Shown: positions 1,965 to 8,031 of the stretch, piece after piece
Numbering within the stretch: the stretch's first letter is position 1
How the letters are laid out: each line of letters begins with the position of its first letter
Assembly: GCA_963787125.1 (NCBI GenBank)
Contig: CAWBBV010000001.1
Location: 1-64,000 of the forward strand
Reading direction: 5' to 3'
Length of the DNA stretch: 64,000 bases
Origin: an uncultured delta proteobacterium
Lineage (GTDB): Bacteria; Desulfobacterota; Desulfuromonadia; Geobacterales; DSM-12255
Made by a program: the position numbers and the translations under genes
The notes under the pieces: model-generated
The model's input: the letters and a program-made list of their open reading frames with translations, nothing else
Database searches by the model: none
What the model was told of the DNA's origin: nothing

Positions 1965-2002
1965 TAGAGTCTGTTTTACGAATATTTTTCTATTGCTACC
2001 TT

Positions 2003-2034
2003 TGAGCCGCCCGGATTGGGGGGCTCATTTTTTT
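2003..2034 (+). terminator. Rho-independent terminator (originally of the rhodanese gene)
   Basis: tgagcc...ggctca stem followed by a 7-T run. Confidence 0.65.
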
Positions 2035-2159
2035 GGTGCGGCGGGGGGATTCTGGCAACGGGCGCCCTGTGGATATTGAGAGTTTATGGGAGGACCGGTC
2101 GCTGATGGGCAAGCCAGGATCCTCAGCTTTTTAAAGTAATCCACGCATAAACTTCATGA

Positions 2160-2206
2160 GAAAACAAAGCCACCCATCCTTCAGAAGGATAGGTGGCTTT
2201 GTTTTC
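2160..2206. repeat. Near-perfect 47-bp palindrome (bidirectional terminator-like hairpin)
   Basis: gaaaacaaagccacccatccttc / gaaggataggtggctttgttttc. Confidence 0.7.
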
Positions 2207-2239
2207 GTCAGGTCCCCTCCCAGGGGGGACGCCCAGGGG

Positions 2240-2295
2240 GGGGACGTTGTTGATTAGTTGATTAACTTGACACTTAGCTGACTAATCAACAACGT
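2240..2295. repeat. REP-like GGGGAC...GTCCCC palindrome, right arm interrupted by IS110 (completed by cccc at 4025-4028)
   Basis: Left arm ggggacgttgttgattagt (2240-2258); right arm actaatcaacaacgt (2281-2295) + cccc (4025-4028) gives a perfect 19-bp inverted repeat. Confidence 0.8.
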
Positions 2296-2422
2296 TATAT
2301 ATGACTGAGAGCTACAGATTTTTCCCCGGAAATTATAGATAAAATAATAAGTTACCAGTCTTGTAGTTCTATTGTCAGCCTGTTATTGAATAGCCATTTA
2401 TTCAACATACCAGGAGGACAGA

Positions 2423-3712
2423 ATGGAAGCTGTAACGGATAGTCTGGCGTTGTTCAGACAGATGAAGGCATCAGTCAGGGGCTCGGAAAAACATCTGCTA
2501 GTCGGCATCGATGTTGCCAAGAACAAGCACCATGCTTTCTTTGGAACACCCAATGGCAGAACGCTACGCAAGAACATGATCTTTGACAACAGCTTACAAG
2601 GATTCGAGAATCTGCGCAGTTTAGCCGGAGATCTCAAGAATCAACATGGCCTGGTCGAGGTTGTGTATGGACTTGAGCCTACAGCCTCCTACCACAAGCC
2701 CTTAGCCGAATATCTGCTGCGACAGAAGGAGCAGGTTGTCTATGTATCCAATGTGGCCGTGGCAAAGAATCGAGCGCTACTGGATGGCCGTTGGGACAAG
2801 AACGACAAGAAGGATGCCGCCAATGTTGCCGATCTGGTGGGCCAGAGCCGCTGCCTCTTCTATGAGCTACCGCAAGAGAACCTGCGTGAATTACGCAGCC
2901 TGATTGGTTTCAGGATCAGGCTGAAGAAGGAAGAGCACGCACTGAAAATGCGGCTGAGAAATAATGTTCTTGCCCAGTTCTTTCCCGAACTGGACCAGCT
3001 CTACATCAAAGCAGGGCAACCGGACGACCTGATTCTTTCAATTGCCGAACATTGTCTGGACCCGAGGGAAATTGCCGGGATGGAGTTCGACGCCTTCCTG
3101 AAGCTCATTACAAAACGCAAGATCAGGATAGAACAGGAAAGACGTCTGCGCGAGCTTTGGGAGACTGCCGGAGAGTCCGTTGGTTGCCTTGTTCATGACG
3201 CCGCCAGATGGGAGGCCAAGAGTCTCGTCTGCCAGCTGAAGTCGATTCGTGAAACGGTCAAGGGTAATGAGCAGTTGATGGCAAAAGCAGCAAAGCAGTT
3301 TTCTGAATATGAGTGCCTTCTGTCTATTCCCGGATTCGGTCCGATTATTTCGGCCATGGTTCTTGCCGCCATCGGCAATCCTGTCCGGTTTCAGAATCAG
3401 GGACAGGTAGTGCGTCTGGCCGGACTGGACTTAAGTGCCGAGCGGAGCGGCAAGAACAGCAACAGTGCCAAGCCGGTGATCTCCAAGCAAGGGAAAGCGG
3501 CACTGCGTTACGCCCTGGTGCAAGCGGCAATGGTTGCCTCCACAGCGAATCCGGTTATCAGGACTTACTTTAGCAAATTAATCAGAGGTCGCGAGCTTGA
3601 GCGCGGCATCAACCTGAAGATGAAAGTCAAGCTGGCGGCAAAGCTTTTGGTTGTGGCCTGGACACTTATGAAGAAGAGAGAACCATTTAATCCTTCCTGC
3701 TTCACGGGATAA
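2423..3712 (+). CDS. IS110-family DEDD recombinase/transposase
   Basis: GIDVAK, GLEPT, KNDKKDA (DEDD); SIPGFGP; ERSGK catalytic-Ser motif; ALRYAL. Confidence 0.95.
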   Translation: MEAVTDSLALFRQMKASVRGSEKHLLVGIDVAKNKHHAFFGTPNGRTLRKNMIFDNSLQGFENLRSLAGDLKNQHGLVEVVYGLEPTASYHKPLAEYLLRQKEQVVYVSNVAVAKNRALLDGRWDKNDKKDAANVADLVGQSRCLFYELPQENLRELRSLIGFRIRLKKEEHALKMRLRNNVLAQFFPELDQLYIKAGQPDDLILSIAEHCLDPREIAGMEFDAFLKLITKRKIRIEQERRLRELWETAGESVGCLVHDAARWEAKSLVCQLKSIRETVKGNEQLMAKAAKQFSEYECLLSIPGFGPIISAMVLAAIGNPVRFQNQGQVVRLAGLDLSAERSGKNSNSAKPVISKQGKAALRYALVQAAMVASTANPVIRTYFSKLIRGRELERGINLKMKVKLAAKLLVVAWTLMKKREPFNPSCFTG

Positions 3713-3736
3713 CCACCCTAGAGGCAGGCAGTAGGC

Positions 3737-3898
3737 GAGATAAGCCCGTTTAACAACGTAGAGGCAGCAATGACCTCGGGAGGGACAATACCGGGCATCT
3801 CACTAAAATCTTGGAGCTTTGATAAGGAATGATAGACAACCCAGTTCCCGATGCGGGCGGGGGATGTCGGATACAAGTAACGATTAAGCTCAAGGTTT
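3737..3898 (+). ncRNA. Putative bridge RNA / seekRNA of the IS110 element
   Basis: Two stem/internal-loop/stem domains folded by eye; loop 1 has AACAACGT (3752-3759) and GGGAC (3782-3786) matching the target; loop 2 has GAATG (3827-3831) and TAAC (3878-3881) matching the donor junction. Confidence 0.75.
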
Positions 3899-4249
3899 GC
3901 CGTAAGTGAGAGACTCGCCATTTCACCAAAGCAAGGGATAGCTGCGCCCGCAATCCGCAAGGATGACTAACTATTTGATTTTAAAAGAGCGATATTTTCA
4001 GTTGACAGGTGGACTATAGAATGTCCCCGCAGGCTACACAGGTGGAGGCCGGCAGCGGTGGCCGCAGCCGGTTGAGCGGGCCGGGTTGCCGGGCGGTGGG
4101 TTGATGGACAACGCTCGCCGGTGGCCTGGCTGTTGGCGCGCCCTGGAGTAGAGGGGAGTTGGATGGCGTCAAATTGGGCGTTTCAGGAAGATTCCACAGA
4201 ATTCGGGAATGTTTAAACCTTGAACAGTTTTTAATTGGCGGAATGTGAT

Positions 4250-4288
4250 AAAAAGCACCCTGGCAGATAATGTCAGGGTGCTTTTTTT
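4250..4288. terminator. Hairpin with A/T flanks, bidirectional terminator-like
   Basis: aaaaagcaccctggca...tgtcagggtgcttttttt. Confidence 0.6.
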
Positions 4289-4425
4289 GTGGGAATCCAA
4301 ACTGGTGAAACTGAGCAGTGCCGTATGCCAGAAAATGAAGCTGTTCAAGGGGTGAGACAAGCTGGGTGTTTATTTTAAAAAATGCTCCAGTGAACTGGAA
4401 AAATCCGGTAGCGAGAAGGAATAAA

Positions 4426-5741: not shown

Positions 5742-6476
5742 TCAAGTAATTGTCCGTCGCTTCCGCATAGATTCACCCTTCAGCTCGACCTTGTAGGCAT
5801 TATGCACCAGCCTATCCAGAATAGCGTCAGCCAGCGTTGGGTCTTGCATGGCATCGTGCCAAGCCTTAATGGGTAACTGACTGGTAACAATAGTCGCTTT
5901 CCGGTCGTAACGTTCCTCGACGATTTCCAGCAGTTCCCGCTGGTCATCCTGCGAGAGCGGCGAAATGAGCAGGTCATCAAGCACCAGCACCTCGCACTTG
6001 GTCACCTGAGCCATAAGTTTCTGATAGCGACCATCGTGGCGGGCAATGGAGATGTCCTGAAGCAATCGTGGCAGTCTCTGGTAGAGAGTTGTGTGTCCAT
6101 CCCGGCACGCCTTCTGTGCCAGTGCACAGGCGAGATAACTCTTGCCAGCTCCGGTTGGTCCGGTGATGAGGATATTCTGATGGCTTCGCACCCACTGATT
6201 CTGGGCAAGGGACATTACCTGTGACCGGTTCATACCTCGTGCATCTCTGAAGTCCAAGTCTTCGATTGATGCCGACAGGCGTAGCTTGGCAGTTCTCAGT
6301 CGATTCTGCATCCTACGGTTCTCCAGTTCTGTCATCTGGTGGTCTACAAGCAGACCAAAGCGTTCCTCAAAGGTGAGGGACGCCATGTCGGGACGTTGCA
6401 TCTGCTCAGTGAATGCCTGAGCCATAGCGGTGAGCTTCATTACTTTGAGTTTCTCGATGGTCGGTTGTGTCAGCAT
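5742..6476 (-). CDS. istB: IS21 helper ATPase IstB
   Basis: GPTGAGKS Walker A; LVLDD; TSQLP..WH; ADAILDRLVH; GESMR. Confidence 0.95.
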   Translation of the reverse strand: MLTQPTIEKLKVMKLTAMAQAFTEQMQRPDMASLTFEERFGLLVDHQMTELENRRMQNRLRTAKLRLSASIEDLDFRDARGMNRSQVMSLAQNQWVRSHQNILITGPTGAGKSYLACALAQKACRDGHTTLYQRLPRLLQDISIARHDGRYQKLMAQVTKCEVLVLDDLLISPLSQDDQRELLEIVEERYDRKATIVTSQLPIKAWHDAMQDPTLADAILDRLVHNAYKVELKGESMRKRRTIT

Positions 6477-6489
6477 GGGGTTCCTTTGT

Positions 6490-8031
6490 TCATCCGTAAT
6501 AATCCGTACCACGAATGTTATCGTGGGTAACGGTCAGCAGTTCCTGTTGTTTGGGGAGAGGTTTCTGGTCAAGGTTATTATTCAGAATCGACTTGATGCT
6601 GGCGTAACTAATCCCTTTTATGAACAGGGCACGTTCACAGGCTGCTTCCAGTCGTTCCTTGCCGAACTTTTTACCAAGGGAGATGATTCCCATACAGGAA
6701 CGAAAGCCATGTTCCGCATAGGCTCTTCTGGAGAGAATGGATTCTACAACCGCCGCCGTTGCCTTGCCGGTCTGGGATGCCCAGGTGACGAGGCGTTCCG
6801 GAGTCCACTCAGCATACTCCCGGTGGGCTGTTGGCATATGCTCGGGGTCAGTGGTGTGTTTCCCTTTTACAAACGAGCGAGGATGCGAGGCGATACGATT
6901 TCCCTTATGGAAACACTCCACAGTAGCAGACGTGTAGCGAACATCGACCTGTTCCCGTACCAGTCTGTACGGCACACTGTAGAAATGCCCTTCCACATCG
7001 ACATGGTAATCAATGTGCACTCTGGCAATCTTCCATTGGGCATACTGGTAAGGGAGTTCCGGCAGTGGCAGCATTGCCGGACGGTCAAGTTCCTCGAACC
7101 GACTCTTGCGGGTACCGGGAAGTTTCCTGAAGGGACGGTTGTTCAGAAGTTCCAGCCGTTCTTTGATGGCAGCATTCGCTTCTGCCAGACTGAAGAAGGT
7201 GTGATGTCGTAAACCGGCAAGGATGAACCGCTGCACGAACTGGACACCGGCTTCTACCTTGGGCTTGTCTCGTGGTTTGCGGACACGGGCGGGAACAACA
7301 GCGGTGCCGTAATGAGTCGCCATTTCCTGATAGGTGACATTGATGCCAGGTTCATATCGGCAGGTCTTGGTGACACCAGACAGTAAATTATCTGGAACGA
7401 GACAATGAGGAACGGCACCGAAGTAGGAGAATGTTCTGACATGTGAACCAGTCCAATCAGCAAGGGACTGGCTCCATGTGGTTTCGGCATAGGTGTAGTT
7501 GCTGGCTCCCATGACCGCAACAAACACCTGAGCGTCACGTATCTCTCCGGTGCTCGAGTCAACAATCGGAATAGTCTGACCACAGTAGTCCACGAACATC
7601 TTCTCGCCGGCACGATGTTCCTGACGCATGGACAGGTCGAGTTTGCCACGCCAGAACCGGAACAGGTCACAGAACTGACTGTACTGGTAACCGGATGGCT
7701 CCCGTTCCTTATACTCTTGCCATAGAAGCATCAGCGTCAGGTTCTTGTGGGAGAGTAGTTCGTTATGCAGGGATGCCCAGTCGGGAGGTGTCCGCCTACT
7801 GGTTATGGCACGAGGATGTTGAGGATAGAGAAGGCGTTCCAGCCGTTCATCATCGAGGTCGGCTGGCAAGGGATAGGACAGACCGGCAGCAGAAGCCCGG
7901 TATAGAGTATCGGTGACGGTTGTCTTGCCGATACCGCAACTGTCGGAAATGGATTGTCTGGTCTGATTGCAAGACCAGGCAAGACGGAGTATCTCTCGGA
8001 TTTTACGCATAGTAACTCGATTCTGCGGCAT
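6490..8031 (-). CDS. istA: IS21 transposase IstA
   Basis: LLWQEY, YSQFC, GEKMFVDY, VPDNL, PRDKPKVE motifs. Confidence 0.95.
   Translation of the reverse strand: MPQNRVTMRKIREILRLAWSCNQTRQSISDSCGIGKTTVTDTLYRASAAGLSYPLPADLDDERLERLLYPQHPRAITSRRTPPDWASLHNELLSHKNLTLMLLWQEYKEREPSGYQYSQFCDLFRFWRGKLDLSMRQEHRAGEKMFVDYCGQTIPIVDSSTGEIRDAQVFVAVMGASNYTYAETTWSQSLADWTGSHVRTFSYFGAVPHCLVPDNLLSGVTKTCRYEPGINVTYQEMATHYGTAVVPARVRKPRDKPKVEAGVQFVQRFILAGLRHHTFFSLAEANAAIKERLELLNNRPFRKLPGTRKSRFEELDRPAMLPLPELPYQYAQWKIARVHIDYHVDVEGHFYSVPYRLVREQVDVRYTSATVECFHKGNRIASHPRSFVKGKHTTDPEHMPTAHREYAEWTPERLVTWASQTGKATAAVVESILSRRAYAEHGFRSCMGIISLGKKFGKERLEAACERALFIKGISYASIKSILNNNLDQKPLPKQQELLTVTHDNIRGTDYYG

Follow-up and report, generated by a model that had tools for sequence, protein, structure and literature searches.

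The window analysed here, which comprises the first 64,000 nucleotides (nt) of contig CAWBBV010000001.1 (assembly GCA_963787125.1) from an uncultured delta proteobacterium of the Geobacterales, contains an insertion sequence of the IS110 family at positions 2296-4024. The element looks active, and it is highly probable that its 3' non-coding end encodes, on the strand of the recombinase gene, a bridge RNA (or seekRNA) of about 186 nt; this judgement includes the donor loop, the expression and the mechanism described below. An earlier reading of the same DNA, referred to here as the original prediction, had assigned to this non-coding end a bridge RNA with loops for target and donor, and the conserved fold and the covariation of the guides bear it out. 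The RNA appears to be of a known kind in an undescribed lineage, which is well supported, and the element would be complete and programmable. Coordinates are those of the window and features lie on the plus strand unless stated otherwise.

The comparisons draw on relatives from two sources, cited by locus number (L) where they must be told apart. A protein search gave 27 loci in species genomes, with identities from 93% to 29% and titles that mostly name Geobacter, Geobacteraceae, Desulfuromonadales and other anaerobes. From metagenomes, 80 of 118 stretches were kept. A profile of the conserved 3' block matched 102 of the 122 sources, and 84 full-length RNA rows were taken further, 68 of them distinct.

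Element, junctions and target site

The insertion sequence spans 1729 base pairs (bp) when the GT at 4023-4024 is counted as a copy of the core. A DNA search of the element's own genome showed eight copies with 99-100% identity and identical junctions. The left flank ends in ...CGT, after which the element begins with TATATATG; at the right junction the element ends in ...ATAGAATGT and the flank begins with CCCC in all eight copies (right target half, 4025-4028). Since GT is present at both junctions (2294-2295 and 4023-4024), it is taken as the core dinucleotide, as originally predicted. The same dinucleotide stands at both ends without target duplication, and the genome has 11 uninterrupted copies of the site, AACAACGTCCC. 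The non-coding ends measure 127 nt on the left and 312 nt on the right, the RNA lying within the latter.

The left target half with its core copy (AACAAC + GT, 2288-2295) adjoins the left end of the element. The left flank is readable in six of the eight own-genome copies, the other two being located at contig ends; it reads AACAACGT in four and AGCAACGT, one base different, in two. When the flanks in the window are rejoined they form one arm of a perfect palindrome, in which 2244-2258 pairs with 2281-2295 (15 nt, 100%). The left arm of this palindrome (2241-2258, no strand assigned) holds an unoccupied copy of the 11-bp target at 2241-2251 on the minus strand. The full palindrome is found in three of the six readable left flanks. 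These 11 unoccupied exact sites compare with 3 for the reversed pattern that served as a control; most of the 11 are preceded by the same repeated motif and one is the other arm of the window palindrome. The 11-bp target AACAAC-GT-CCC is therefore part of a repeated, often palindromic, intergenic motif. Within the window the octamer AACAACGT occurs four times, where 1.19 would be expected; these comprise the two target arms, the RNA loop and one further occurrence.

Other pieces of the element were noticed in the same genome. In one copy (L002, contig C16) the complete empty target and the same following bases recur in the right flank, 17 nt past the element (AACAACGTCCCCTATGCCCCGC), so that this copy sits within one unit of a tandemly repeated target. 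A fragment of 230 nt with 89% identity (L009, C14:70349-70579) holds the left end and the start of the gene, and two short right-end pieces are 83 nt (L010, C24:65761-65843; 83% identity) and 35 nt long (L011, C4:195382-195416; 100%). These three fragments may be remnants or solo ends.

Extent and fold of the RNA

A conserved block follows the stop codon directly in 20 of 22 aligned genome loci, and L017 and L037 have unrelated sequence there. Covariation, alignment and folding place the RNA at about 3734-3919, with its ends set by the closing helix. The original prediction had ended it at 3898; the 3' strands of the closing helices lie at 3905-3919, and the RNA consequently reaches about 3919, 21 nt further.

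The closing helix P1, formed by GGCGAG (3734-3739) and CUCGCC (3914-3919), joins two arms with one internal loop each. It is paired in 97% of the alignment cells and three of its six pairs have changed on both sides. The target-binding arm (3744-3796) consists of the stems GCCCG/CGGGC (3744-3748/3792-3796) and GAGG/CCTC (3761-3764/3774-3777), which frame an internal loop with strands at 3749-3760 and 3778-3791. Helix P4, in which UCUCACU (3798-3804) pairs with AGUGAGA (3905-3911), closes the donor-binding arm, with 95.6% of cells paired and two pairs changed on both sides. The donor arm itself (3807-3897) has an outer stem, AATCTT.GAGCTT/AAGCTC.AAGGTT (3807-3819/3886-3897), and inner stems at 3835-3842/3861-3868 (GACAACCC/GGGATGTC, with one A.A mismatch) and 3847-3850/3854-3857; its internal loop runs over 3820-3834 and 3869-3885. 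The two stems framing each loop in the original prediction are thus present, apart from the outermost part of the first arm.

There, the pairing GAGAT/ATCTC (3737-3741/3797-3801) had been proposed as outer stem. It shares bases with both P1 and P4 and competes with them. Three of the five GAGAT/ATCTC pairs are invariant and one is broken in four sequences of a distant clade. Exactly in these four, the P4 column 82/214 is compensated (AU in three, GC in one), and at the P1 column 5/223 three of them are compensated while the fourth has GU. The fifth pair is GC in 14 sequences, UA in 8, UG in 1 and unpaired in 38. Because the compensatory changes occur where GAGAT/ATCTC breaks, P1 and P4 are the better-supported fold. 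The RNA may alternate between the two folds.

The fold was evaluated by writing a 46-pair structure on the window sequence and counting over a MAFFT alignment of the 68 distinct homologous sequences. In this alignment 89.0% of cells pair, compared with 84.4% in shuffles and 30-51% when the partners are slid. Both-side changes are found in 24 of the 46 pairs against 12.0 in shuffles, and none of 500 shuffles attains any of the five structure measures. Pairs were counted on the stated structure since RNAalifold lost two helices on the gappy 68-sequence alignment; on 21 sequences the program predicted 43 pairs, 23 of them with compensatory changes. The single-sequence minimum free energy structure of 3732-3921 contains these helices too (z = -2.41, with 4 of 200 shuffles as good). 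Folding of 3713-4024, a check proposed with the original prediction, was not informative, the whole 312-nt end having an unremarkable folding energy (z = 0.15). A scan of 2000-4400 with Rfam 15, at E values up to 1, gave no match within 3713-4024.

In the relative L095 (RNA at 1922-2115), 7 nt (ACCGGGT) are duplicated within the target arm's 3' strand, and the -35 box reads CTGACA. It is possibly a decaying copy.

Target guides and insertion sites

The first loop reads the target on both of its strands. The left target guide AACAACGU (3752-3759, 8 nt) is identical to the top strand of the left target and core at 2288-2295 and would pair with the bottom strand. The right target guide GGGAC (3782-3786, 5 nt) is complementary to the top strand of the core and right target (GTCCC, 4023-4027). 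Together, the two guides would specify the 11-bp site AACAAC-GT-CCC. All strings named in the original prediction, those of the donor loop included, are where it had put them.

Comparison of guides with target sites across homologues had been suggested as a check, and its outcome agrees with the prediction. The element ends of the relatives were located by profiles, their flanks were read and identical combinations of guide and flank were removed, which left 53 pairs for the left guide. Among relatives, no part of the RNA varies more than the 5' strand of the first loop. Over the seven positions before CGT, the left guide matches its flank at a mean of 4.79 positions versus 3.65 in shuffles, a value attained by none of 20000 shuffles. 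All eight bases match the flank in 15 of the 53 pairs, whereas 3.6 are expected from shuffles. Rare left guides fit their own flanks: ATGGGCGT (L055, L056), ACCAACGT (L068, L082), TCATCAACGT (L107), AACTACGT (L046, L121), AAGAGCGT (L035, L115) and TTTCGT (L073). In one clade of 53% identity, L029, L105 and L107 carry three guides on one scaffold, and these fit their own flanks at 10, 9 and 10 of 10 positions.

Independent contrasts were computed on the recombinase tree for 57 of 62 rows, five being dropped for truncated proteins. Guide and flank change the same way at position -7 (5.5 contrasts versus 0.1 the other way) and at -6 (6.3 versus 0.2), with p about 0.03 each; positions -9 and -10 show the same trend without significance.

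The right guide is nearly invariant, as is the flank, the 5-mer being identical in 58 of 64 distinct pairs. Five elements have changed right guides, and three of these match their own unusual flanks over 7, 7 and 6 nt: AGCUCAC against GT+GAGCT in L073, UAAGAAC against GT+TCTTA in L080 and GGUGAC against GT+CACC in L108. In L073 both target guides have changed together (left TTTCGT, right AGCTCAC).

Several results weigh on the other side. The shuffle tests for the left guide ignore relatedness. The contrasts are without signal at -5 (1.5 versus 1.1) and -4 (1.1 versus 1.1), and at least one mismatch is present in the left 8-mer in 38 of the 53 pairs. As for the right guide, that of L074 fits at 6 of 7 positions with the mismatch beside the core, that of L102 over only 4 contiguous nt, and L030 and L036 combine the consensus guide with a GTTCC flank. 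Finally, in a clade of 47-48% identity (L031, L032, L108, L110) the first loop does not match the left flank. In that clade the loop assignment may differ.

With regard to the left-guide mismatches, many elements are inserted in sites with an A/G difference at -5/-4, and two of the six readable own-genome copies differ at another position. IS621 also tolerates a natural mismatch at one position. The mismatches may be due in part to chimeric metagenome assemblies of multi-copy elements or to tolerated off-sites. Taken over all pairs, the evidence that the target guides covary with the insertion sites among relatives is strong, and the assignment of a target loop within 3744-3796 is firmly supported by sequence and covariation.

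Two further loci deserve mention. L023 (73% identity), whose right end is disrupted in the right-guide set, has unrelated sequence in place of the right end after TTGACAGGGGAATTATGA, and is for this reason regarded as a truncated or rearranged copy. In L032 the 5' strand of the first loop, ..TAACGTGT.., resembles the element's own left end TACGTGT.

Candidate donor loop

The second loop plausibly reads the joined ends of the element, with one covarying position behind this assignment. Joined ends would have the sequence ...ATAGAATGT|TATATATG... The 5' strand of the loop, GGAAUGAU, contains GAAUG (3827-3831), the candidate left donor guide, which is identical to the right-end bases 4019-4023. 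The candidate right donor guide GUAAC (3877-3881, in which the predicted TAAC occupies 3878-3881) would pair with the core GT and the left-end bases TAT through one G:T wobble. At 5 nt each, the donor matches are weaker than the target matches, just as the original prediction had stated.

Variation in the right end is accompanied by variation in the guide. GAAUG occurs with AGAATGT and GGAUG (GGGAUG) with AGGATGT, and 42 of 46 distinct combinations agree. The guide and right-end traits each change five times on the tree, and four of four independent pairs change the same way. On the right side, the 3' strand AUAAC is a perfect match in L035, L080, L118 and others, and the strand pairs throughout in L032 and L043, where the left end begins with TAC. 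AU at 3871-3872 may extend the right donor pairing across a 4-nt bulge of variable sequence; at a single locus, L032, the U of this extension is C where the left end has G. The combination of AU, bulge and GUAAC recalls the discontiguous right donor guide reported for IS621.

The donor assignment has weaknesses of its own. The left donor guide has an A facing the second core base T, and the right one comprises just 5 nt with one wobble and hardly varies. Four contrasts cannot reach significance (p 0.125), and the tree used for the donor traits left out both exceptions, L030 and L036, for truncated proteins. The donor match of L035, L115 and L118 (GGAUU) stands one base out of register with the core.

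Predicted junction promoter and proposed mechanism

On joining, the element ends would form a promoter of the sigma-70 type, TTGACA-17 nt-TATATA. The -35 half TTGACA (4002-4007) lies 17 nt before the last base of the element, and the -10 half TATATA (2296-2301) begins it. Related elements retain both halves: TTGAC is found in 79 of 80 right ends, at exactly the same distance in 72, and the left end starts with TATAT in 61 of 64 loci. Junction promoters have been described for both subgroups of the family and are presumed to transcribe the non-coding region too (PMC11187229, PMC12288879). As a point against the expression proposed here, no promoter was predicted directly upstream of the RNA in the window copy.

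Two conserved blocks were also observed between the RNA and the -35 box, one at 3936-3950 (like GGGA.A.GUGCGCC) and one, AT-rich, at 3968-3989 (TAACTATTTGATTTTAAAAGA). The latter occupies the place expected for an UP element of the junction promoter.

By extension from the work on IS621, two recombinase dimers would hold the two loops. Strands would then be exchanged at the GT core and the circle inserted without target duplication. The joined-end promoter would drive the recombinase gene and, by read-through, the RNA. The RNA itself would be transcribed, bound by the recombinase and active in recombination.

Alternative readings

The alternative that survives best, although we consider it unlikely, is that the first arm alone guides. 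A short seekRNA-like product (about 3744-3796 with its neighbours) would pick the target, the second arm would serve as scaffold or in another role, and the ends would be recognised via the flanking target halves or by the protein. Such economy has a precedent in the seekRNA study, where RNAs of 58-96 nt with only target-matching segments sufficed and the target halves next to the donor had a bearing on circle formation (PMC11187229). The brevity of the donor matches, each with a mismatch or a wobble and with little variation, also fits it. The second arm, however, is equally conserved and equally rich in compensatory changes, with both-side changes in 8 of 12, 5 of 8 and 2 of 4 pairs of helices 5-7 in the 68-sequence alignment. 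Its loop strands keep the same polarity to the joined ends as those of the target loop keep to the target, and the A/G change of the 5' strand together with the right end in all four independent contrasts speaks for a donor function.

A guide function for both arms is contested by a second alternative, which is very improbable. It takes the 3' block for a binding site of the recombinase at the DNA level or for a 3' structure of the mRNA, with a target determined by the protein and a likeness between loop and target due to common descent. Most relatives do share nearly the same target (..AACGT|CCC), so that the match could largely be inherited, and this is precisely what the shuffle tests leave in; the whole 312-nt end also folds with unremarkable energy. 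On the other hand, the both-side changes in 24 of the 46 pairs favour a fold of RNA or single strand. Inheritance is poorly compatible with the one-sided contrasts at -7 and -6, with the three guides of L029, L105 and L107 that each fit their own flank on a common scaffold, and with loops that differ in the same way as their sites on both sides, as in L073.

Least probable of all is transcription of the RNA from the minus strand, with guides that are the reverse complements of those given: the helices barely discriminate the strands (89.0% of cells paired on plus, 86.7% on minus), which weakens the case for the plus strand to that extent, but each guide would then face the DNA strand that its counterpart in IS621 and ISEc21 does not pair with, and the RNA directly follows the gene on the gene's strand downstream of the junction promoter, with AT-rich -10-like hexamers just upstream on the plus strand in distant relatives (seen in the alignment, unscored). 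The plus strand is preferred because of this position and because the published guide geometry fits only then.

Recombinase and place in the family

The recombinase gene (2423-3712) encodes 429 amino acids (aa), the length originally predicted. The protein has a DEDD RuvC-like domain (PF01548, 1.1e-27) and a Tnp domain (PF02371, 2.3e-20). On alignment to the solved IS621 and ISCro4 recombinases, its residues D30, E85, D128, D131 and S342 fall in the D, E, D, D and S columns of IS621, which we take to be the catalytic residues. The closest solved structure is the IS621 recombinase (phmmer, 1.9e-17, 66.7 bits). The best named protein matches are ISBth13 (tblastn, 28% identity, about 120 bits) and ISSfl4/ISEc20 (26%), over 84% of the length. 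Pairwise comparison gives 33.5 bits with IS4321, over 124 C-terminal residues only (26% identity), and 24.3 bits with ISEc21 (E 0.005). Placement of the enzyme by such scores appears ambiguous, single-reference scores being too weak to place the lineage.

The original prediction had likened the element to the IS1111 type. The position of the RNA downstream of the gene agrees with this, and the remaining features do not: subterminal repeats are lacking, the enzyme has 429 aa, the guides follow the IS110 order and IS4321 aligns over 124 residues. Apart from the location of its RNA, the element thus appears IS110-like and not IS1111-like, an assignment that is made from features (guide order, enzyme length, subterminal repeats) and not from phylogeny.

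With respect to length, PMC11187229 gives 330-350 aa for IS1111 enzymes and 395-455 aa for the IS110 subgroup proper. With respect to guide order, the bottom-strand guide stands 5' of the top-strand guide here, as in IS110/IS621; the same paper reports a bottom-strand match 5' of the top-strand match for ISEc21 and the reverse in the tested IS1111 members. A repeat search of the element found no pair of subterminal inverted repeats (7-17 bp) close to its two ends. Just one repeat involves the ends, and its left arm lies 72 nt into the element, where the 17-nt stretch 2367-2383 is 82% complementary to 4005-4021, which covers the right-end -35 region. Close relatives retain the complementarity at 13-16 of 17 positions and distant ones have lost it, without clear covariation.

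The IS110 group has its RNA in a long left end upstream of the gene, unlike this element, whose RNA is located in the right end. Because PMC11187229 notes that some IS110-family elements carry a long non-coding region downstream, the combination of a downstream RNA with IS110 features is regarded as a minority form and not as a new kind.

IS621, of the IS110 group, is among the closest known systems (PMC11208160, PMC11208158, PMC13626964). Alike are the DEDD and Ser recombinase, the two internal loops, in each of which the 5' strand matches the top strand and the 3' strand is its complement, the core dinucleotide that all four guides would read, the placement of the target within a repeated palindromic motif and a candidate right donor guide that is short or possibly discontiguous. 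In the published IS621 scheme (PMC11208160), which the reading given here follows, the 5' side of a loop pairs with the bottom strand and its 3' side with the top strand, and each of the four pairings takes in the core. Unlike the present element, IS621 has its RNA in the left end, and its solved chain has 328 aa (429 aa here) and its core is CT (GT here). In the RNA predicted here, a common helix P1 closes both arms and the left and right target guides have 8 and 5 nt.

ISEc21 (PMC11187229) shares the guide order and the promoter formed in the circle. Its RNA is located upstream of the gene and the two proteins are barely alignable. The IS1111 family (ISEc11, ISPa11, ISKpn4 and IS4321 type; PMC11187229 and PMC11208160) resembles the present element in having a long non-coding region, and with it the guide RNA, after the recombinase gene. 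Its members differ in their subterminal inverted repeats, plain in IS4321 as GGTCACTCC/GGAGTGACC and without a counterpart here, and also in the shorter enzymes, the reversed guide order and the alignment limited to 124 residues of IS4321. Closer in protein sequence are the clusters ISBth13/ISCth7 and IS110/ISEc20/ISSfl4, named relatives in plasmids, which hold the best named matches; ISEc20 and ISSfl4 cluster with IS110 itself in the supplement of PMC11208160. The identity is nevertheless at most 30%, and no likeness to this RNA was found beside ISBth13. The target stem-loop reported for ISPpu10 (bioRxiv 10.64898/2026.03.19.712850) is similar in that the target lies beside or within a stem-loop-forming repeat, and dissimilar in that the full palindrome is present here in only half of the readable left flanks.

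A description of this lineage was not found in the literature searched on bridge RNA in Geobacter or on right-end bridge RNAs in IS110 elements. Three short motifs of the protein were likewise not found in the supplements of PMC11208160, the searched text being incomplete and thus no proof of absence. The chances appear evenly balanced that the element represents a distinct lineage of IS110-type bridge recombinases of about 430 aa, in which the RNA has moved to the right end with the IS110 guide polarity kept, P1 closes a three-way junction and the right donor guide may be discontiguous (AU, 4-nt bulge, GUAAC).

Significance

Bridge and seek RNAs are recent and directly usable in genome engineering, and well-documented natural orthologues are therefore useful. 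If the lineage is indeed a distinct one, the eight identical copies and the dozens of naturally reprogrammed relatives would make it a ready-made, compact and active orthologue whose target has 11 bp and a GT core. The relatives contribute about 60 natural guide/target pairs, which indicate that positions -7 and -6 and the right guide track the target, and that -5 and -4 tolerate mismatches. A right-end RNA can be combined with IS110-like guide polarity, so that location and polarity are separable, which bears on the origin of the two subgroups. For annotation, the reading accounts for the eight copies inserted in a repeated intergenic motif of this genome, and 11 more exact sites are predicted. 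It opens no new kind of biology.

Surroundings of the element

The element has mobile neighbours on both sides. A DDE_3 transposase with helix-turn-helix domains (PF13358, 4.4e-21) is encoded at 890-1960 on the plus strand, and an IS21-type pair at 5742-8031 on the minus strand, composed of IstB (PF01695, 5e-71) and an integrase-core/Mu-C protein. On either side of the insertion, at 2157-2209 and 4246-4289, strong terminator-like hairpins precede T runs. The Rfam scan also returned weak microRNA and His-leader matches at 2148-2216 and 4193-4289, which were rejected as plain hairpins or terminators.

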